A stretch of DNA of 64,000 nucleotides from Armatimonadota bacterium (lineage in GTDB: Bacteria; Armatimonadota; Fimbriimonadia; Fimbriimonadales; Fimbriimonadaceae), in NCBI GenBank assembly GCA_016223145.1, contig JACRPN010000006.1, forward strand, positions 120,211 through 184,210. Reading direction: 5' to 3'. Made by a program: the position numbers and the translations under genes. The notes beneath the pieces were generated by a model, which ran no database searches, was not told the DNA's origin, and saw nothing but the letters and a program-made list of their open reading frames with translations. Positions 1,396-11,957 of the stretch are shown here, piece after piece. Every line of letters begins with the position of its first letter. Position 1 is the first letter of the stretch.

Positions 1396-2400
1396 TTAAG
1401 CCCAGGGCTTCGCATTGGGCCCGAAATTGGCGTTGTAGTACTCGGAAACGTGCGTTCCCGGCGCGATCACCGCGTCGACCGCCTTCATTACCTTTTCCGA
1501 AAGCTTCATCTGGCAGGCAGCGGCAGACTCCTCCAACTGGGACTCGGTGCGCGCGCCGATGATCGGCGCGGTGATTCCGGGCTGGCCCGCGACCCACGCC
1601 AGACTCAGAGTGGCCAAAGTCATCCCGTTCCGGTCGGCGATCCGCTTGAGCCTGGAGACCACCTGCGAGGACCGAGCGTTTACGCGCTTCATCGGGTCGC
1701 TGGTGGCATAGCGCGCACGGCCCGCGGTGGAGCCGAGGTATTTGCCGCTCAACTGGCCTCCAGCCAAGGGCGACCATGGGATCACACCCCAGTCGTAGGT
1801 CCGGCAGAAGGGAAGGAACTCTCGCTCGATGCGCCGGTCGAGCAGGTTGTAGGGCGGCTGCTCGCAAACGAAGCCGTGGGTCCCCAGCGATTTAGCGACA
1901 TAGTGCGCTTCGCAGGCCTGCCAAGCGGCGTAGGTGGATGTCCCAACGTACCGCACCTTCCCAGCCCGGATTAGGTCATCGAGCGCGCGCAGCGTCTCGT
2001 CGATCGGAATCGTCGGCTGGGGACGATGAATCTGATAGAGGTCGATCCAGTCCGTGCCCAAGCGCTTGAGCGAGGCCTCGCATGCCTCGATCACATGCCG
2101 CCGCGAGTTGCCCCAGGCGTTCGGGTCGTCGTCGGCCATCCGGCCGTGGCACTTGGTGGCAAGCACCAGCTTGTCGCGCTTGCCCTTGATCGCCTTGCCG
2201 AGGATCGTCTCAGAAACGCCCCTGGCGTAAACATCGGCGCAATCGAAGAAGTTGATGCCGAGGTCGAGCGCTTTTGCGGCGATCGTCAGCGCCTCCTCCT
2301 CTTGCGATCCCCAATCGTCGGGCTCCCACCCAAAGGTCATCGTCCCCATGCACGCCACGGAGACCTGCATTCCGGTCCTTCCTAGTGATCGATACTCCAC
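1396..2400 (-). CDS. aldo/keto reductase family oxidoreductase
   Basis: N-terminal MEYRSLGRTGMQVSVACMGTMTFG, FDCADVYA, the IPWSPLAGG motif, 334 aa; classic AKR (Tas/YajO-like) signature. Confidence 0.8.
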   Translation of the reverse strand: MEYRSLGRTGMQVSVACMGTMTFGWEPDDWGSQEEEALTIAAKALDLGINFFDCADVYARGVSETILGKAIKGKRDKLVLATKCHGRMADDDPNAWGNSRRHVIEACEASLKRLGTDWIDLYQIHRPQPTIPIDETLRALDDLIRAGKVRYVGTSTYAAWQACEAHYVAKSLGTHGFVCEQPPYNLLDRRIEREFLPFCRTYDWGVIPWSPLAGGQLSGKYLGSTAGRARYATSDPMKRVNARSSQVVSRLKRIADRNGMTLATLSLAWVAGQPGITAPIIGARTESQLEESAAACQMKLSEKVMKAVDAVIAPGTHVSEYYNANFGPNAKPWA

Positions 2401-2698
2401 TGCTGGGATTTACCCCATCCCGGGGCATTGCGTCATCGATGCCGGACCAGGCCGACTCAATCTGCACCGAAACCGCCCAAAGATGTAGAACGCTATGACG
2501 CCCATCATAGTGGACGAAAAAGTCAAGAATGTTCAATCAATCTATACATTTATTCGTTGTATCTTCATCGGGCATTGAGTCAACATCCCCGACGCGTGAA
2601 ACGTAGTAGATTGCCCATAGTTGCTATAGAATTGCGCTGGGCGAGCGCCCTGAAGTCGCCAATCATGCCGTGAAGCGTGGATCGGTACCATCGTAGCG

Positions 2699-3811
2699 AT
2701 GAACTACCCGGCGGTCGATCCTATCCCGATACCGGCGCCAATCTGGCTGCTGAAGCTGCTGAGCTACGTGACCCTCGCGCTTCATTTTGCCGCTGTGATG
2801 ATCCTGGTAGGCAGCCTGATTCTGGTCATCTACCACAACCTTCGCGGCAGAACCAAAAAGAACGCCGACCTACTGTCGGCTTCGTTTGTCATAGCGCGCA
2901 GGCTCCCCGTCCTGATGACCTTCGTGATCAACCTGGGGGTCCCGCCACTCTTGTTTGCCCAGGTGCTCTATGGCCGGGCGCTCTATTCGAGCAGCATCCT
3001 TATCGGAGCCATGTGGTTCTCCGTGATCCTGCTCTTGATGCTGGTTTACTGGCTGCTCTATCGCCTGTCGTCAGCGATCGAACTCGGCAAGCCAGGCTGG
3101 CCTATTGCTTCGCTTGCGTTCCTCGTCACGCTGGGGGTTGGCCAGATTTACACGATGAACATGACCCTCATGCTCAGGCCCGAAGCTTGGAAAGATCTCT
3201 ACCTCCAGAGCCCTTCAGGACTCCAGGGGCCAGGGTCCGATCCCACGATGATGCCGCGCTGGCTCTTCGTGATGGCCGGCGGCCTGGTGTTCGGAGGGCT
3301 TTGGGCGCTCATGCTCTCGAACATGAAGCACATCGGAGACGCCGTGCCTCGCATCCTTCGCCGGAGCGGCGGGGCGATGGCGGCCATTGGTGCTCTGGCG
3401 CAGCTCTTCTTCGCCTACCAGACCGTCCAAGCGCAGAAGCCGGAGGTCCTCGAGGGCATCAAGGGAAGCATCGTGCACACCTCGGGCGGCTATCTGTTCG
3501 CGGTGGGAATCGTCTTGGCCACCGTGCTTGTGTCGATTCAGGGGCTGACGACAAAGTCGAGCGTGTTCCTTGCCGTGGTTGGCCTGCTCGCCGGCTTTCT
3601 GAGCGCCGCTGGAGCCGTCATCTACCGAGACGGCATCCGAGACTTCACGCTTAAAGCAAAAGGCTTCGATGTGTGGCAGCGCGCAGAGTTCAGCAATTGG
3701 AGCGTCATCGCCCTGTTCCTCTTCCTCTTCGTGGTGATGCTCGCGGTGGTCGTCTGGCTGCTGCTCGTGATGAAGCGCGCGAGCGCTCCGAAGGAACAGG
3801 TGGCTCAATGA
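2699..3811 (+). CDS. polytopic membrane protein, CydA-like (cytochrome bd subunit I-like) paralog lacking the cyt c domain; first gene of a Rieske/cyt b operon
   Basis: 370 aa, about 9 TM segments; N-terminus MNYPAVDPIPIPAPIW...LALHFAAVMILVGS parallels MNYPVWDVPIIGGPWV...AIFHVLIAWFAV of the gene at 5380; the pattern resembles the CydA N-terminus (conserved His in helix 1); its stop overlaps the Rieske start (ATGA at 3808-3811). Confidence 0.5.
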   Translation: MNYPAVDPIPIPAPIWLLKLLSYVTLALHFAAVMILVGSLILVIYHNLRGRTKKNADLLSASFVIARRLPVLMTFVINLGVPPLLFAQVLYGRALYSSSILIGAMWFSVILLLMLVYWLLYRLSSAIELGKPGWPIASLAFLVTLGVGQIYTMNMTLMLRPEAWKDLYLQSPSGLQGPGSDPTMMPRWLFVMAGGLVFGGLWALMLSNMKHIGDAVPRILRRSGGAMAAIGALAQLFFAYQTVQAQKPEVLEGIKGSIVHTSGGYLFAVGIVLATVLVSIQGLTTKSSVFLAVVGLLAGFLSAAGAVIYRDGIRDFTLKAKGFDVWQRAEFSNWSVIALFLFLFVVMLAVVVWLLLVMKRASAPKEQVAQ

Positions 3812-4296
3812 TGGATGAATCGAAACTAAACGCCGAGCCCACGGAAGCGCTGGGCACAGAGACCTCTCGGCGAACCTTTGTGCGCGTGGCGGTTGCGGGC
3901 ATGGGGCTGGCTTACGCCGGCGCCATCGGCTACCCCATCTTTCGCTACCTCAACTCCAACGTCGAAAAAGAAGCCGAGCTTGCCGCGATTAAGGAGGTCA
4001 CTCTCAAAGACGCCGGCAAGCTGCCCAAGGGCTCGATTCTCATGTTCAAGTTTGGGCCCAGGCCGGCCATGCTCATCCACCACGCCGACGACACCTGGTC
4101 GGCCTTTGAAGCGGTCTGTACGCACATGGGGTGCACGGTCGGTTACGATGCCGCCCGCGAGCGAATCGCCTGCCAGTGCCATGGCGGGCAGTACGACCCC
4201 AAGACCGGCGAAAACGTGGGTGGGCCGCCGCCCCGGCCGCTCATGAAATACAACCTCGTAATGTCCAAAGGACTGGCAACGGTAACAAGGATCTAG
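3808..4296 (+). CDS. petC: Rieske [2Fe-2S] iron-sulfur protein of a cytochrome bc/b6f-type complex
   Basis: Cluster-binding boxes CTHMGC and CQCHGGQY; N-terminal Tat-like/TM anchor RRTFVRVAVAGMGLAY; ATG at 3808 overlaps the upstream stop; the ORF-track start at 3673 is an upstream in-frame extension. Confidence 0.85.
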   Translation: MMDESKLNAEPTEALGTETSRRTFVRVAVAGMGLAYAGAIGYPIFRYLNSNVEKEAELAAIKEVTLKDAGKLPKGSILMFKFGPRPAMLIHHADDTWSAFEAVCTHMGCTVGYDAARERIACQCHGGQYDPKTGENVGGPPPRPLMKYNLVMSKGLATVTRI

Positions 4297-4298
4297 CC

Positions 4299-5369
4299 AT
4301 GGCAAAGGTCAGCACGTACATCGTCGAAAGACTAGGCCTGCAGGACACTCTGCAATATGCGTCTCAGAAGGCAGTGCCGCAGCACAAGCACAGCTTCTGG
4401 TACTTCTGGGGCGGCATATCCCTCTTCAGCTTTCTCATCCAAGTGGTGACCGGAATCCTGCTCATGGTTTATTACCGGCCCGGTCCGGAAGCCCACGAAT
4501 CCGTCCGGCAGATTACGTACCAGATGAACTTCGGGTGGCTCATCCGCTCGACCCACAACTGGGCAGCGTCGATCTTCATCGTCTCGATCTTCGTGCACAT
4601 GTTCTCGGTCTACTTCATGAAGGCGTACCGAAAACCGCGCGAATTCCTCTGGCTCAGCGGGGTTGTCCTGCTACTGTTGGGTTTGACCTTCGGTTTCAGC
4701 GGCTACCTCTTGCCGATGGACATGCTCTCCTACTTCGCCACGAAAGTAGGTCTCGAAATCCCAAAGTCGCTGCCGTTCATCGGCCCTGCGGTCGCCGATA
4801 TCCTTCGCGGAGGTATCGACGTCACCGAATTCACGGTGCAGCGGTTCTTCGCGCTCCACACCGTGATCCTCCCCATGGTCTTCATCCCCTTCCTGCTCGC
4901 GCACCTGTGGATGGTGCAGAAGCATGGGAACAGCCTGCCGGAGAGCGAGGAGGCCAAGCCCGAGACCGATAGGAAGTCCATCCCGTTCTTCCCGAACTTC
5001 CTGATGCAAGACCTGGCCATGTGGCTGATCGCTCTGAACGTGATCGCGCTCCTCGCCGCGATGTTCCCCTGGCAGCTCGGCGAACCTGCGGACCCGCTCA
5101 AGCCGGCGCCGGTAGGCATCCACCCCGAGTGGTACTTCATGAGCCCCTTCCAGACCCTCAAGCTCATCGGGAAGCTGATTCCCGGCGCAGCGGGCGAGGT
5201 AATCGGCATGTCCGTTTTCACCCTCGGCATGGTGCTCTGGATCCTGATTCCGTTCTACGACGTGAAGAGCAAGGGCGCCCAGCGGGCCAAGCGTGCGACC
5301 TATTTCGGACTGCTGGCGCTGTTCATTCTGGTCGGGACGTCCGCCTGGGGATACCTGGGAGTGCAGTAG
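4299..5369 (+). CDS. petB: cytochrome b (fused b6/subunit IV-type) of a quinol:cytochrome c oxidoreductase
   Basis: Paired His in helices B and D (HNWAASIFIVSIFVHM, ALHTVILPM...AHLW), Qo-site PEWY motif (HPEWYF), 356 aa; ATG at 4299 lies 3 nt after the Rieske stop. Confidence 0.9.
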   Translation: MAKVSTYIVERLGLQDTLQYASQKAVPQHKHSFWYFWGGISLFSFLIQVVTGILLMVYYRPGPEAHESVRQITYQMNFGWLIRSTHNWAASIFIVSIFVHMFSVYFMKAYRKPREFLWLSGVVLLLLGLTFGFSGYLLPMDMLSYFATKVGLEIPKSLPFIGPAVADILRGGIDVTEFTVQRFFALHTVILPMVFIPFLLAHLWMVQKHGNSLPESEEAKPETDRKSIPFFPNFLMQDLAMWLIALNVIALLAAMFPWQLGEPADPLKPAPVGIHPEWYFMSPFQTLKLIGKLIPGAAGEVIGMSVFTLGMVLWILIPFYDVKSKGAQRAKRATYFGLLALFILVGTSAWGYLGVQ

Positions 5370-5379
5370 GAGATAACAG

Positions 5380-6777
5380 ATGAATTATCCAGTTTGGGAT
5401 GTTCCAATTATCGGCGGACCGTGGGTCATCGGCATCGTCGCGATCTTCCATGTGCTCATCGCATGGTTCGCGGTCGGCGGAGGGCTCTACCTCCCGATGG
5501 CCGAATCGAAGCTCTACAGGGAAGGCAGGGAAGAGTGGCTGCCCGTGCTCATGAAGCATTCCAGGTTCTTCCTCGTGCTCACGAGCGTCTTTGGCGCCAT
5601 CTCGGGCGTCGGCATCTGGTTCTCGATCGGCTTGGTGCACCCCGAAGCGACCTCGACCCTCATCCACAACTTCCTCTTCGGCTGGGCGATCGAGTGGGTG
5701 TTCTTCGTGGTCGAGCTCGCGGCAGCGGCGGTCTACTACTTCACTTGGAATCGCATCCCCCGTGAGCTTCATCTCAAGGTGGGCTATCTCTACGCCATCG
5801 CGTCGTTCCTGACGCTGGTCATCATCAACGGAATCCTCTCCTTCATGCTCACCCCCGGTGGCGCCTGGCTCGAGGTGGCTGGAACCGGGCAGGAGGCCTC
5901 CAAGTTCTGGTTTGCCTTCTTCAATCCGACCTATGTCCCGTCGCTCATCATGCGGAGCCTAGCGTGTACCGCGCTGGCTGGGATCTACGCGCTCATCAGC
6001 TATTCGATGGTGTCCGATCCGGGACTCCAAAACACAAAGGTCCATATGGTTCGGTGGTCTGCCAAGTGGCTCACGCCGATCTTCTTCCTGATGCCGGTTG
6101 CCCTCATATGGATGCTCTTGGCGATGTCGGCGGAGAGCCGAAGCCTGCTGGAGCTTGGGATGTCCACCATCGGCTCAGGAGCCTTCACCCAGGTCACAAG
6201 GATCGCCATGCTGACCATCCTGACGACCTTCACCATCGGCGGTGTCGTCTATTTCTTCGCCTATCGATCACCGCGCGACTTTTCGCTGGGGCATGCCATC
6301 TCCATTCTGGCGCTCGCCGCCGTGGCGACGGCATCCACAGAATTCGCCCGCGAAATGGTTCGAAAACCCTATGTGATCGGCGAGCACATGTATAGCAATG
6401 GGGTCCGTGTGAGGGACGTTCAGAAGCTGAACCGGGACGGATATTTGACAGGCTCGCTCTGGAAGGAAGAGCACATGGGGCGCGCAGAAATGGGCGAGAT
6501 CATCTTCCGGGGCGAGTGTATGAGCTGCCACACCGTGGACGGCTACCGATCAATGAGACGGCTCCTGCAGGCGCGAAACGAGGATGCGATCAAGAAGCTC
6601 CTCGCCATGCTCCACAACCCGCCAAAGGACTCCCCGTACAGGAAGTACATGCCTCCGCTGGTGGGCACTCCCGAAGAGATCGACGCCCTCGCCGGCTACC
6701 TCGTCGTGCTCTCAGGCCCACCCGCACCAGGTTCACCACCGGCAGCCCAACCACAACCATCCACCAAAACGCCTTGA
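5380..6777 (+). CDS. membrane-integral c-type cytochrome: CydA-like polytopic N-domain fused to a C-terminal monoheme cytochrome c domain
   Basis: About 370-aa multi-TM N-domain paralogous to the gene at 2699; C-terminal soluble domain carries a single CMSCH (CxxCH) followed by a Pro/Ala-rich tail; immediately downstream of cyt b. Confidence 0.7.
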   Translation: MNYPVWDVPIIGGPWVIGIVAIFHVLIAWFAVGGGLYLPMAESKLYREGREEWLPVLMKHSRFFLVLTSVFGAISGVGIWFSIGLVHPEATSTLIHNFLFGWAIEWVFFVVELAAAAVYYFTWNRIPRELHLKVGYLYAIASFLTLVIINGILSFMLTPGGAWLEVAGTGQEASKFWFAFFNPTYVPSLIMRSLACTALAGIYALISYSMVSDPGLQNTKVHMVRWSAKWLTPIFFLMPVALIWMLLAMSAESRSLLELGMSTIGSGAFTQVTRIAMLTILTTFTIGGVVYFFAYRSPRDFSLGHAISILALAAVATASTEFAREMVRKPYVIGEHMYSNGVRVRDVQKLNRDGYLTGSLWKEEHMGRAEMGEIIFRGECMSCHTVDGYRSMRRLLQARNEDAIKKLLAMLHNPPKDSPYRKYMPPLVGTPEEIDALAGYLVVLSGPPAPGSPPAAQPQPSTKTP

Positions 6778-6889
6778 ACCCAAAGGGTCTGCTGAAAAAC
6801 GACTTCCAGCAGGACGGTCGGGGTTTGACCCCAACGGGGTCAGCAGAAAGTAGCCAGGGGTTGAGCGAAGCGAAACCCCTGCAGAGCCG

Positions 6890-9394
6890 TCAACCCTTCC
6901 CCCCATGATCCTTCATTTCGGCGCTCTTGCGGTCGTTCGCGCCCAGCAGGTGCTCGGCGAAATACTCCATGGTCATCTGGCTGAAGTAGGTTTGCATCGG
7001 CCCATACCCGTGCGCCTGACCGGGGAACAGGATGAAGTCGAACCGCTTGTTCGCTTTGATCAACGCGTCCACGAGCCGGTAGGTGTTCGCCGGGTGGACG
7101 TTGTTATCCATGTCGCCCGTCGCGAGGAGGAGTTTGCCCTTCAGGTTCGCTGCGAGCTCGACCGTCGTCGGCACCTTGATCTCAAGCTTGGTCTCGGTCT
7201 CCAGCGGGATGATCTTGCCGTCCTTGTCCTTCTTCGGCACCTTGGTTTCCTTGATGCCGTGGTACTGCTCGCTCCAGTTGTCGTTGTAGATGTTGTTGTC
7301 GTGGTTGCCGGATGAGCTGACACCGACCTTGAAGAAGTCGTTGTAAGGCGGCAAGAGCAGAGCCGCGGCGGTCATGAATCCCCCGCCGGAGTGCCCGTAG
7401 ATCCCGACCCGTTCGATGTCAATCCAGGCGTACTTGCTCGCGAGCTGCTCGATGCCGGCTTTCTTGTCGGCAAGGCCGTAGTCGCGCAGGTTGAAGTAGC
7501 TGTAGCTCTGATAGGCGTTGGATCGCGCGGGGTTGCCGCCCCGATTGCCGATCTGGATCACGATGAACCCAAGCTGTGCGAGCCGCTGGTCGCCGGCGGA
7601 AGCCGAGAACGTGGAGGCAACGCTCTCGGTCTGAGGTCCCGGATAGACGTGGGCGATCACTGGATAGCTCTTGTGCGGGTTGAAGTCAAACGGCTTCCAC
7701 AGGTTGCCGTAGATGTTGGTGACCCCATCAGCCGCCTTGACCACGAAAGTCTCCGGCATTTTCCAGCCCGTCTCATACAACCGGCTCAGGTCGGCCTTCT
7801 CCAGCGGCAGAAGCTCCTTGCCGTTCTCGTCTCGAAGCACGGATTCGGGCGCAAGGTCCACCCGCGAGTAGTTGTCCACGACGAACTTCTTGCTGGGTGC
7901 GAGCACGGAGTTGTGGTCGGCGTTTCCAGGATCGAGAAGCGTAATGCTCTTGCCGTCAGGGCTGACCCGGTACAGATGGCGATAGTAGGGGTTCTCTCCC
8001 TCCTCGCGGCCAACGCCACGAACCCAAGCCGTACCCTTGTCCTCGTCGAGCTCAGCGATTTGGTCGAACCGCGAGGGTCCTTCCGTCATCGCGTTCTTCA
8101 GCTTGCCGTCTTGCCCGTAGAGATAGTAATGCCCCCAGCCCGTCCGTTCAGACCACCAGATGAAATCGCCGTTCTTGAGCCTCCGTGGCGCCTGCACCTC
8201 AAGATTGGCCTGCTCGATCGACTCGGAGAGAAGCACCTTCACCGAGCCCGCCTTCGGGTCGTATTCGCAATAGTCCAGGTTCCGCTGGAGCCGGTCGCGC
8301 CGGCAGAACCGCATGAGGCTGGAGTCTCCATTCCAACTCATGTTCATGAGCCGTTGATCCTGCCACTTGCCCACGTTGGCCGTCTTTAGCTTCTTCTCGG
8401 CTTTATCGAATGTGAAGAGCTCGGTCTGGGTGACGTCGGCCTCGCCGGGCATTGCATAACGATATTGCGAGAGCGTGGGCCGAGGCTGCGCCAGGTTGTT
8501 GACCAAGAACAGCTCCTTGACCTTGCGCGAGTCGCTCCGCGTCACATAGAACATGCTCGAATCTTTCGACCACGTCACGTTGGCTCTCACTCGGCGCTCC
8601 GGCGGCTGGTTGGTCTGCTGGCCGGTTCCGCCTTGCACCAGGTCCTCGATCTGCTGTTGCTGCTGTTGCTGCTGTTGCTGCTGGAACTGCTGAAACTGCT
8701 GGCGATCCTCATAGCTGCCAAAGCTGAAATAGCGCTCGCCGTCCTTGGAGAGCTGGACCGGATTCTTCTCGTCGGCCACTTCGACGAAATAGAGGTTGTG
8801 GTCAAGGGCGTAGACGTAGGCCTTTCGATCCGGGGAGTAGTTCCGGAAGCCATCTGCGGCATTGGCGCCCTGACCACCTCCGCCACCTTGGCCGCCACGA
8901 TTCCCGCCACCGCGACCCCCCCCGCCCGGGGGCCCGCCTGCCGGAGCGGCTCCACCGGCAGGTGCATCGCCTAAGAGCTTGAGTGTCCCTTTGGCAATAT
9001 CGTACTCATACCGCTTGGCGTCGACCGTAAACGTGAAGGTGTCTCCCTTATCCGAAAACGTGAGCGTCGTGATGGCCAAATTGGTGATGTCGTAGGGCTT
9101 CTTTCCAAGCTCCGAAAGCTGAGCCGCCATCTTGTTGGAATCGAAGAGCGGCTGCTTCTTGCGCGCCTTGCAGTCGACGATATAGAACTTGACGCCCTCC
9201 CGATCCTGCCACCGGTACCAGAACTTGTCTTGGTCCTTGAGCCAACCGGGCGTCACCGCGGTGCTGTAGGTGTACTGCCGGATGAACTCGTTCGTGAACT
9301 TGTCGGCGAGCTTCCAGTTGGCGGTCTCTACGGCGGGAGCCAGGGGTTGCGCGGCGAGAGAAACCCCAAATAGGAGAGCGGTTAACGAAGTCAT
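6890..9394 (-). CDS. S9 family serine peptidase (dipeptidyl-peptidase IV / prolyl oligopeptidase-like), secreted, with low-complexity insert
   Basis: Signal peptide MTSLTALLFGVSLAAQPLAPA; DPP-IV-like beta-propeller N-domain; catalytic GHSGGGF (GxSxGG) plus downstream Asp/His; insert GGAAPAGGPPGGGGRGGGNRGGQGGGGGQG and QQFQQFQQQQQQQQQQQ; ATG verified at 9394. Confidence 0.8.
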   Translation of the reverse strand: MTSLTALLFGVSLAAQPLAPAVETANWKLADKFTNEFIRQYTYSTAVTPGWLKDQDKFWYRWQDREGVKFYIVDCKARKKQPLFDSNKMAAQLSELGKKPYDITNLAITTLTFSDKGDTFTFTVDAKRYEYDIAKGTLKLLGDAPAGGAAPAGGPPGGGGRGGGNRGGQGGGGGQGANAADGFRNYSPDRKAYVYALDHNLYFVEVADEKNPVQLSKDGERYFSFGSYEDRQQFQQFQQQQQQQQQQQIEDLVQGGTGQQTNQPPERRVRANVTWSKDSSMFYVTRSDSRKVKELFLVNNLAQPRPTLSQYRYAMPGEADVTQTELFTFDKAEKKLKTANVGKWQDQRLMNMSWNGDSSLMRFCRRDRLQRNLDYCEYDPKAGSVKVLLSESIEQANLEVQAPRRLKNGDFIWWSERTGWGHYYLYGQDGKLKNAMTEGPSRFDQIAELDEDKGTAWVRGVGREEGENPYYRHLYRVSPDGKSITLLDPGNADHNSVLAPSKKFVVDNYSRVDLAPESVLRDENGKELLPLEKADLSRLYETGWKMPETFVVKAADGVTNIYGNLWKPFDFNPHKSYPVIAHVYPGPQTESVASTFSASAGDQRLAQLGFIVIQIGNRGGNPARSNAYQSYSYFNLRDYGLADKKAGIEQLASKYAWIDIERVGIYGHSGGGFMTAAALLLPPYNDFFKVGVSSSGNHDNNIYNDNWSEQYHGIKETKVPKKDKDGKIIPLETETKLEIKVPTTVELAANLKGKLLLATGDMDNNVHPANTYRLVDALIKANKRFDFILFPGQAHGYGPMQTYFSQMTMEYFAEHLLGANDRKSAEMKDHGGKG

Positions 9395-9512
9395 GGGACG
9401 GGTATTCGATTGCCGCGACAACAATTCCTCCGTATGCCACGAGATTGGGCCGGTAAGCAGTATTTTGGTCCGAACTTGATTTAGCCCCGGCAAAGGTCAA
9501 TAATCATCCATC

Positions 9513-10087: not shown

Positions 10088-10828
10088 TTACTTTCGGCGG
10101 CGTCGTGCGAGGGCAGCGACGGCGAGGCCGAGGACCGCGATCGTTGCGGGCTCAGGCACGGCCAGGATCTCATAGCGCGAGGTGCCACCGGCGAGGTCCA
10201 TCGCAGAGAGATCGAAGTCCCAAACGGCGTGCATATCACTGACCGCTCCGGCCACAGGAGCCCAGCCATAGTTGGCCGATTGAGTGGCGGAGCCGCCGGC
10301 ACTCACAGAGAACGGCGAGATCATCGACTGGAACAGACTTCCAGGCATTCCGTTGTAGCGGGCAAAAAAGCTGTCGCCGCCACGGGAATCGCCGAATGAG
10401 GCGCCGTCCTGGTCGAAGTCCGTGATCGTCACACCGGCGCTCGTCTGGCCCACCGCGTTCGAGATGGTCGGGAAGCTGAGCAGAGCGGACGAAATCGTGA
10501 AGTGCGTCGTCGTGGCGCCGGCAAACACCGCGTACCCAATGGCAACGACAGGGTCGTTGACGTAGCGGGCATAGCCGCTGCTGAGCGTGGCGATCGTGAC
10601 GCCCTCGGCGTTCTTGATGTCGACCGACTGAGCCAACGACCACGAATTCGTATAGTTGTTGGGATCGAAGCCGGCCTGCTCTCGGGTCACCTCGAAGGTG
10701 CCGGTGCCGAGGCTGTTGGTGGCCGTGACTTTGAAGATCACGTTGCCGAAGTCGGCGCTGGCGGCAGCGGCCAGAGACGCAAAAGCGAGAATAGCGATAT
10801 TGGTACGAAGCAAGCGAGTATTCACCAT
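10088..10828 (-). CDS. PEP-CTERM sorting-domain secreted protein
   Basis: Signal peptide; C-terminus VPEPATIAVLGLAVAALARRRRK (PEP motif + TM + basic tail); strong SD (GGGGAGG) before ATG 10828. Confidence 0.8.
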   Translation of the reverse strand: MVNTRLLRTNIAILAFASLAAAASADFGNVIFKVTATNSLGTGTFEVTREQAGFDPNNYTNSWSLAQSVDIKNAEGVTIATLSSGYARYVNDPVVAIGYAVFAGATTTHFTISSALLSFPTISNAVGQTSAGVTITDFDQDGASFGDSRGGDSFFARYNGMPGSLFQSMISPFSVSAGGSATQSANYGWAPVAGAVSDMHAVWDFDLSAMDLAGGTSRYEILAVPEPATIAVLGLAVAALARRRRK

Positions 10829-11000: not shown

Positions 11001-11741
11001 TCAGCGCCGCCGCCGCAGACAGCCCACGAATCCGAGAGCAAGGGCCGCGAGCATTGACGGCTCCGGAACCGGCAACACCTCGTACCGGGAGGTTCCGCCA
11101 GCAAAGTCGAACGACGACAAGCGGAAGTCCCAATGTGCCGTCATGTCGCTCACCGGTGCTCCGACGTTGACCCAACCGTAGTTGTCGTTGTGCGTCAGCG
11201 AGCCGTTTGCACCAACCCCAAAAGAAGCCAGAGCCGAATGAAACTCAGAGCCAGGCACACCGTTGTAGAGCGCGCGATAAGAATTCGTTCCGGAGGCGCT
11301 GCCAGTGAAGCTGGCCGTATCGCCCAAGACGTCGGTCACCGTGACTCCGGCGCTCGTCTGGCCCGTGGGGTTGGCGATCGTTGCGAACGACATCGTTGCC
11401 GACCAAATCGAGAAGTGCGTCGTCGAGGCGCCTGCTCCCACCGAAAAACCGAGGCTGATCAGAGGGTCGTTGGAATAGTAGATGACCGCGCCCATCAACG
11501 TGGCGATGATCTCTTGAGCGTCGTTCCTGATGTCAACCTGCTCAGGCAGCGACCAGAAGTAGCCCTGTCCCGAGTTGGTCACATATTGGGAATCGTATTG
11601 AGCCTCAAAGGAGCCGGTGCCGGCAGCGTTGGAGGCAATGACCTTGAACATGGGCCCGCCGAAGTCGGCATAGGACAACGCCGTCAAAGCGGACAAGGAC
11701 GCGACGAAAAATAGCGAACGAACCGAGCGCAAATACACCAT
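11001..11741 (-). CDS. PEP-CTERM sorting-domain secreted protein, tandem paralog of 10088..10828
   Basis: C-terminus VPEPSMLAALALGFVGCLRRRR; long collinear similarity with the neighbor (FKVIASNAAGTGSFE / FKVTATNSLGTGTFE, TTHFSI / TTHFTI, TSAGVTVTD / TSAGVTITD); ATG 11741 preceded by a GAGGAAG SD. Confidence 0.8.
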   Translation of the reverse strand: MVYLRSVRSLFFVASLSALTALSYADFGGPMFKVIASNAAGTGSFEAQYDSQYVTNSGQGYFWSLPEQVDIRNDAQEIIATLMGAVIYYSNDPLISLGFSVGAGASTTHFSIWSATMSFATIANPTGQTSAGVTVTDVLGDTASFTGSASGTNSYRALYNGVPGSEFHSALASFGVGANGSLTHNDNYGWVNVGAPVSDMTAHWDFRLSSFDFAGGTSRYEVLPVPEPSMLAALALGFVGCLRRRR

Positions 11742-11957
11742 CTTCCTCACCACCCAATCAAACAGGGAGCAACCCAAAGCGGCTGCAACCCAGCAATATT
11801 GACAGTATAACCCGAACTTGCCAAGATAGACCTGGCAAAAATATCAGTTGTACTGGTCAAATTGCCTGGGTTGTGCCTGAACTGCCGGAACTCTGAAGGG
11901 TCCCAGATACAGCCGCGCCTGGAACTTTCCGAGCCAAAAGTGGCATCTAATAAGGTC

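Follow-up and report, generated by a model that had tools for sequence, protein, structure and literature searches.

The 64,000-nucleotide stretch analysed here, called the window, covers positions 120,211 to 184,210 of contig JACRPN010000006.1 from an Armatimonadota bacterium (GCA_016223145.1). Near its beginning lies an operon of four genes, in which a Rieske protein and a cytochrome b are flanked by two proteins, A and D, related to cytochrome bd oxidase, D by sequence and A by predicted fold. All four open reading frames (ORFs) were confirmed in the ORF list for 2699-6777 of the window, on the plus strand, and their translations match exactly the consecutive NCBI proteins MBI5706289.1-MBI5706292.1 of an Armatimonadota metagenome-assembled genome:

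2699..3811, plus strand: gene A, 370 amino acids (aa), MBI5706289.1 'hypothetical protein'
3808..4296, plus strand: Rieske gene, 162 aa, MBI5706290.1 'Rieske (2Fe-2S) protein'
4299..5369, plus strand: cytochrome b gene, 356 aa, MBI5706291.1 'cytochrome bc complex cytochrome b subunit'
5380..6777, plus strand: gene D, 465 aa, MBI5706292.1 'cytochrome ubiquinol oxidase subunit I'

The stop of gene A and the start of the Rieske gene overlap in an ATGA (3808-3811), the Rieske stop at 4296 is followed after 2 nucleotides (nt) by the cytochrome b ATG at 4299, and the cytochrome b stop at 5369 is separated from the gene D ATG at 5380 by 10 nt with GGAG inside. A preliminary description of this DNA had located the overlap at the same place but had given the two gaps as 3 and 11 nt. 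The flanking genes are unrelated to the operon and lie on the opposite strand, with an aquaporin and an aldo/keto reductase upstream and an S9 peptidase downstream, so that the operon consists of exactly these four genes. These neighbours in the window were rejected as operon partners, being unrelated housekeeping genes. A CMSCH motif in D is the only CxxCH of the operon, and no c-type cytochrome gene, including cytochrome c1 or f, is found among the four.

The two middle genes contain the motifs expected of a quinol-oxidising complex of the bc1/b6f type. The two cluster motifs of the Rieske protein were located by sequence as follows:

4117-4134, plus strand: Rieske cluster motif CTHMGC
4171-4188, plus strand: Rieske cluster motif CQCHGG

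The Rieske protein matches PF00355 (E 1e-13), and its residues C104, H106, C109, C122, C124, H125, G126 and G127 show at least 97% conservation across 68 sequences. Its N-terminus carries a twin-arginine motif (SRRTFV) and a hydrophobic helix, in keeping with the membrane anchor of Rieske proteins. The closest solved chain is 8hn2_A, a 'cytochrome b6-f complex iron-sulfur subunit' (E 9e-17), presumably the Chlorobaculum tepidum domain of the crystallography paper. Cytochrome b matches PF00033 (E 9e-47), PF13631 and PF00032 and reads as a cytochrome b6 fused to subunit IV, its best solved matches being cyanobacterial cytochrome b6 (E 1e-52). Its four haem ligands, His86/His100 and His187/His202 with spacings of 13 and 14 residues, and the Qo motif PEWY at aa 276-279 (nt 5124-5135) are likewise at least 97% conserved (68 sequences). 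Haem ci was considered and rejected, since FWGG stands at the place of the b6f-type CxGG. In agreement with the preliminary description, which had called both proteins canonical, the middle genes are an ordinary b6-type Rieske/cytochrome b pair. The pair resembles the cytochrome b6f and green-sulfur Rieske-cytochrome b complexes in its b6-like His spacings and PEWY; unlike those complexes, it has b6 and subunit IV in one chain, lacks CxGG and any cytochrome f, c1 or c-556 gene, and would find its acceptor on a CydA-like protein.

Gene D encodes that protein, and its features are located as follows, all on the plus strand:

5449..6354, plus strand: bd-type active-site residues of D, namely H24, E105, E112, H131, T145, R192 and E321/R324/E325/R328
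5449-5451, plus strand: D H24, the His19-equivalent haem ligand
5692-5694 and 5713-5715, plus strand: D E105 and E112, the Glu99/Glu107 equivalents
6352-6354, plus strand: D E325, a weakly aligned E445 equivalent
6412..6714, plus strand: cytochrome c domain of D, aa ~345-445, with weak PF13442/PF00034 matches
6517-6531, plus strand: CMSCH haem c motif of D, aa 380-384
6649-6651, plus strand: D Met424, the likely axial ligand

D matches the family Cyt_bd_oxida_I (PF01654) with 64.1 bits against a curated cut-off of 26.2, the match ending at profile position 203 of 418, which identifies it by sequence as a homologue of cytochrome bd subunit I. Searched against PDB sequences, the profile of D returned distant canonical CydA chains and nothing else. 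The AlphaFold2 model of D (predicted local distance difference test score, pLDDT, 75), like the other model built on input alignments from database matches, shows eight long helices and then a small helical domain, with short loops only and no Q-loop. In a HMMER alignment with CydA of G. thermodenitrificans, H24 pairs with H21, E105/E112 with E101/E108 and H131 with H128, whereas the position of the haem b558 ligand His186 is taken by the invariant R192; furthermore, helix 7 of D contains no conserved Met equivalent to Met393. Thus, of the ligand positions named in the preliminary description, the equivalents of His19 and Glu99 are retained, as is that of Glu107, whereas those of b558 are lost. 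E105 and E112, at the positions of the proton-channel glutamates, have a qOR3-like spacing of seven residues. The ExxRKP motif around E325 pairs with ExGRQPW of CydA, where the second active-site ligand lies, only in a second HMMER domain of 0.6 bits. The active-site residues are invariant in 17 sequences and across the three gene architectures described below, with S or T at position 145, and the mean pairwise distance of D (0.36) is close to that of cytochrome b (0.33), indicating a nearly equal constraint.

The C-terminal domain of D is a periplasmic, monohaem cytochrome c domain. Profile comparison matched it to cytochrome c6 and to the c domains found in copper nitrite reductase, and C380, C383, H384 and M424 are invariant in 31 of 31 sequences, in accordance with the CMSCH monohaem domain that had been noted at this end of D.

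Gene A encodes a protein of 370 aa without Cys, modelled by AlphaFold with nine helices (pLDDT 89). It matched no family in Pfam or NCBIfam and no PDB sequence by profile, with no match to the CydB family (PF02322) at E<=1, and its database homologues are all labelled 'hypothetical'. Comparison of A with D by BLASTP was not significant, and hhalign gave a weak match (E 0.0015, probability 16%), collinear over ~200 residues; the relationship was therefore judged by comparison of folds. The predicted fold of A is that of CydA/CydB, and together with the weak profile match it suggests that A and D are paralogous. The preliminary description had called both flanking proteins CydA-like and paralogous on the basis of an N-terminal motif; this holds by sequence family for D and by predicted fold for A, and the paralogy finds its basis in the fold and the weak hhalign match rather than in that motif. 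The following position is kept in A:

2783-2785, plus strand: A His29 in helix 1, kept in 29/29 sequences and in all three architectures

Based on this invariant His29, A may carry its own haem, as was earlier speculated for the archaeal CydA'.

The spread of the cassette was examined by a genome scan with D, using one genome per species, which gave at least 593 confirmed D relatives; the locus analysis covers the best 80 of these at least 593 loci. The order A-Rieske-cytochrome b-D was found in 67 of the 67 complete loci among the best 80 and again in ~40 complete metagenome loci. With the same order in 67/67 complete homologous loci, the gene arrangement is far beyond chance, and the four-gene cassette proposed at the outset is borne out. 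The carriers among the best 80 loci belong to about eight phyla: Armatimonadota, Acidobacteriota, Verrucomicrobiota, Chloroherpetonaceae/'Ca. Thermochlorobacter', Planctomycetota, Hydrogenedentota, Sumerlaeia and Fibrobacterota. Between the four proteins, the matrices of pairwise distances show Spearman correlations of 0.42-0.68, which indicates that the four genes share one history. No other conserved neighbour was common to more than 8 of the 80 loci, and no hidden cytochrome c1 was found in their flanks. No dedicated c-type subunit, whether c1, f, a dihaem c or a c domain attached to cytochrome b, was found in the operon, the 80 genome loci or the metagenome loci, and the homologous loci are devoid of any other CxxCH protein. 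The absence of cytochrome c1/f and of a dihaem cytochrome c, first noticed in this single operon, thus extends to its relatives; the comparisons led neither to a transporter family nor to a hidden cytochrome c1.

The cassettes vary in several minor respects. The sole neighbours that recur stand 100-400 base pairs (bp) upstream of A in L006, L078 and other loci: a divergent ORF reading as a LuxR/PAS-type regulator and an ORF reading as an Rrf2-family regulator, each seen in eight of the 80 loci and each named from reading of the sequence. These neighbours may point to redox- or nitric oxide (NO)-responsive control in some lineages. In some cassettes of peat Acidobacteriota and soil metagenomes, the intergenic gaps are enlarged. 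A 254-aa ORF reading as a short-chain dehydrogenase stands between the Rieske and cytochrome b genes in L108, L125, L131, L135, L139, L141, L148, L154 and L159, and a 104-130-aa ORF reading as a four-helix bundle of the 23S rRNA intervening-sequence-like kind stands between cytochrome b and D in L106, L114, L116, L125, L136, L139, L148 and L159. These families were likewise named from reading of the sequences. No CxxCH was found in the inserted ORFs of the enlarged gaps, and they were rejected as cytochromes on that ground. One metagenome locus (L121, Ga0247727_10012135) holds a more divergent copy of the four-gene cassette, with hidden Markov model (HMM) scores about half those of the others, so that the architecture reaches beyond the tight clade sampled. 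Two loci, one labelled Archangium gephyra (L007, CALRVA020000078.1) and one labelled uncultured archaeon (L020), are near-identical in coordinates and sequence identity to the Chthonomonas/Armatimonadota loci L006 and L008, and the taxon labels of their contigs are probably binning or annotation errors.

The family to which D belongs was traced to the OR-C branch of the bd superfamily, whose members are described as eight-helix proteins that lack a quinol site and carry a C-terminal haem c (Murali, Gennis and Hemp 2021, bioRxiv 10.1101/2021.01.16.426971). In this preprint, Armatimonadota are listed as OR-C carriers in the phylum table, a cytochrome c donor is proposed for OR-C, and petA/petB/petD are reported beside the bd-like genes of OR-N1 and OR-N5, for which a quinol donor is inferred. 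Its text names no link of OR-C to a Rieske/cytochrome b pair, and Figure 1 of the preprint may depict one. D has the four-helix core with H24, E105 and E112, no quinol site, and eight helices with a CxxCH extension, as OR-C1a does. It shares with the OR-C1a row of Table S6, at the same residue numbers, H24, E105, E112, H131, S/T145, L153, Y119, V77 and W80, and likewise has no Q-loop and no b558 ligands (Murali et al. 2021). An exhaustive phmmer search with D gave 260 clusters (50% identity) at E<=1e-30, including two-, three- and eight-haem proteins. As these multihaem proteins align with D over residues 1-442, D is assigned by sequence to OR-C1a, as its monohaem form.

The partner gene was identified in the same way. 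The A-family HMM matches, with 115-260 bits, the gene directly adjoining the octa-haem and di/tri-haem OR-C1a genes, and A is consequently the OR-C1b-type partner subunit. A lacks the helix-3 (proton-channel) glutamates and stands as the second CydA-like subunit beside OR-C1a; 'b'-type subunits are described as lacking these glutamates (Murali et al. 2021, 10.1101/2021.01.16.426971).

A survey of architectures, in which an octa-haem relative served as the seed for scanning metagenomes, distinguished three arrangements. In octa-haem D loci, A is immediately upstream of D, and in di/tri-haem D loci it is immediately downstream, in both cases with no Rieske/cytochrome b pair; only in monohaem D loci is that pair present, placed between A and D. 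The first haem c domain of D is invariant in all three. The simplest reading is that A and D form a functional core and that the electron-input device differs by clade. It appears that, in the monohaem clade, a Rieske/cytochrome b pair entered between the two oxidase genes and took over from a multihaem electron-input arm. In the OR-C reference from Desulfovibrionia, OR-C1a has up to eight haems c and OR-C1b two, the genes being adjacent with no Rieske/cytochrome b; the partner gene beside the eight-haem members is homologous to A. The cassette differs from it in having one haem c in D, none in A (no Cys) and the Rieske/cytochrome b pair between them.

Taken singly, both halves of the cassette are of kinds already known, the Rieske/cytochrome b pair being b6-type and the bd-like pair OR-C, and the idea of a bd-like enzyme fed by a bc unit has been stated for OR-N1 and OR-N5. 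OR-N1 and OR-N5a/b of Nitrospirota, Rubrobacter and Chloroflexota embody the same idea, in that Rieske and cytochrome b genes accompany a CydA-like pair without a Q-loop; they belong to another branch of the superfamily, with 10 or 14 helices, the H186-equivalent His kept and no fused haem c. OR-N5a, by the same source, conserves Q146, G154, W118 and N120, whereas D, with eight helices, R192 and a fused haem c, lacks OR-N features; membership of D in OR-N5 was rejected on residues and helix number. Compared with canonical CydAB (qOR1-3; 5ir6, 6rko, 7d5i), D lacks the Q-loop, the b558 ligands His186/Met393 and helix 9 and gains the c domain, and A has no sequence similarity to CydB (PF02322) but keeps the invariant helix-1 His, which sets the cassette outside the qOR group. 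The obligate actinobacterial bcc-aa3 supercomplex (7q21, 6hwh) is alike in concept, since no soluble cytochrome c is used and a membrane haem c bridges Rieske/cytochrome b directly to the oxidase. Its oxidase, however, pumps protons and is of the haem-copper type, and its bridge is the dihaem QcrC, whereas in the cassette the oxidase-like part is bd-like and copper-free and the bridge lies in the catalytic subunit. Full-text searches found no description of an A-Rieske-cytochrome b-D cassette in the literature.

A model is proposed in which the four genes encode one membrane menaquinol:oxygen oxidoreductase ("bc-bd"), with the haem c of D replacing cytochrome c1; its probability is put at roughly 0.6. 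The complex would consist of two modules, a b6-type Rieske/cytochrome b unit for quinol oxidation through a Q cycle and an OR-C-type bd-like pair in which D is the catalytic CydA-like subunit and A its CydB/CydA'-like partner. Quinol would be oxidised at the Qo site of cytochrome b, with one electron passing through haems bL and bH and the second to the Rieske cluster, whose mobile head would deliver it to the haem c of D. This haem would stand in place of cytochrome c1/f and also of the missing haem b558. From there the electron would reach a two-haem (b595/d-type) site in D, ligated by H24 and probably by E325, where O2 would be reduced with cytoplasmic protons taken up via E105/E112. A would fill the place of CydB in completing the pseudo-symmetric dimer, and may have an extra haem on H29. 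The donor is probably menaquinol, because the box-II residue in CQCHGG is Gly and not Ser. Gly at this position is a trait of low-potential Rieske proteins. Such a complex would move ~2 charges per electron versus ~1 for a quinol bd oxidase, these figures being summed from the textbook stoichiometries of bc1 and bd. The preliminary description had left two alternatives, a bc-type complex with a novel haem-b/haem-c membrane subunit and a hybrid of a quinol oxidase with a bc complex; the latter is the better fit, given the invariance of the bd active-site residues, and the D family is not novel but the catalogued OR-C. A bolder form of the proposal is doubtful. It holds that the cassette is an obligate copper-free bc-bd respirasome, a terminal oxidase class not yet isolated, in which a Q cycle would feed directly into a bd-type oxygen site. 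A would be no inert scaffold of the CydB kind but would bind a haem on His29, making the enzyme pseudo-symmetric with additional redox centres. Among soil Acidobacteriota, Verrucomicrobiota and Armatimonadota it would be the chief enzyme of the bd family, with ~2x the energy efficiency of canonical bd.

Several points weigh against the proposed oxidoreductase. That the two modules associate is inferred solely from the order of the genes, and unrelated genes are inserted between Rieske, cytochrome b and D in some cassettes; such tolerated insertions indicate that translational coupling is not obligatory. The equivalence of E325 with E445 depends on the very weak second HMMER domain, and Table S6 of the preprint scores the E445 position as absent in OR-C1a (10.1101/2021.01.16.426971). 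The model of D is only moderate in confidence (pLDDT 75). Full-text searches returned no biochemical, spectroscopic, structural or expression data on any cassette member, and no demonstration of O2 reduction by an OR-C or OR-N enzyme is known.

Three other explanations were weighed against these facts. The cassette might be a bc-type quinol:cytochrome c oxidoreductase only, in which the haem c of D is an anchored c1 analogue that feeds soluble carriers or a haem-copper oxidase and the CydA-like helices are a scaffold. As the operon has no other c-type subunit, the haem c of D must serve the Rieske protein in any scenario, and Chlorobi relatives with the cassette were described as having 'two cytochrome b-Rieske complexes' with caa3 as the sole oxidase listed; in earlier genome papers such loci figure as a second 'cytochrome b-Rieske complex', and the bd-like part was never taken for an oxidase. 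A mere anchor, however, would not keep H24, E105, E112, H131 and E321/E325 across three architectures and many phyla, nor would it match cytochrome b in conservation. Moreover, the A and D pair exists without Rieske/cytochrome b in the multihaem forms, and so has a function of its own. This explanation is judged unlikely.

An equally improbable explanation keeps the coupled complex and changes its terminal reaction, with NO, H2O2 or another small oxidant in place of O2, or a reverse or alternative flow. No assay of an OR-C enzyme is known, bd-like proteins of nitrite oxidisers are called enigmatic in the literature, the octa-haem relatives occur in anaerobic Desulfovibrionia, and eight of the 80 loci have the Rrf2-type regulator ORF, as read from sequence, close to the cassette. 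NO sensing is known from some Rrf2 regulators. Yet the residues that are conserved make up the O2-reducing site and the proton channel in characterised bd oxidases, and the monohaem carriers belong to largely aerobic or microaerobic groups such as Armatimonadota, Acidobacteriota, Verrucomicrobiota and 'Ca. Thermochlorobacter'; canonical bd oxidases of anaerobes also reduce O2. Least probable of the three is the co-transcription of two independent enzymes, a c-less Rieske/cytochrome b complex and a cytochrome c:O2 oxidase of the OR-C type, linked by a diffusible cytochrome c encoded elsewhere. The cytochrome c donor proposed for OR-C by Murali et al. would fit it, as would the inserted genes tolerated in some cassettes. 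The Rieske/cytochrome b pair nevertheless sits between A and D and not beside them, is present only where D is monohaem, and is accompanied by its own cytochrome c subunit in no cassette; a Rieske/cytochrome b complex that lacked its own c-type acceptor would not function.

The cassette occurs in at least several hundred species-level genomes (at least 593 confirmed D matches) of phyla abundant in soil, peat and freshwater. To our knowledge, every cytochrome bd oxidase known so far is a quinol oxidase that conserves little energy, and we know of no purified member of the Q-loop-less OR-C or OR-N families. If the four genes do encode a quinol:O2 enzyme, it would constitute a third wiring of complex III to an oxidase, besides bc1-aa3/cbb3 and ACIII-caa3, and the aerobic or microaerobic capacity of the carriers would be read differently from their genomes, in which D is currently annotated 'cytochrome ubiquinol oxidase subunit I' and A 'hypothetical protein'. 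The replacement of an input arm by a Rieske/cytochrome b pair also makes the cassette a clean evolutionary example of module exchange.

The remaining features belong to the surroundings of the operon. Upstream of gene A lies the following spacer:

2401..2698, no strand assigned: non-coding spacer 5' of gene A, ~300 bp, between divergently oriented genes and lower in G+C than its surroundings

A consensus scan of 2300-7100 gave no sigma-70-type promoter site; the spacer at 2401-2698 presumably holds the operon promoter. Further downstream in the window, 10088-10828 and 11001-11777, both on the minus strand, encode tandem paralogous secreted proteins with a PEP-CTERM-type signal (VPEP...RRRK) at their ends, of which only the protein of 10088-10828 reached the Pfam threshold for PEP-CTERM. 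The DPP-IV/S9 peptidase encoded at 6890-9493 on the minus strand carries a Gly-rich run and a long poly-Gln tract (QQFQQFQQQQQQQQQQQ) between its N-terminal part and its propeller domain.

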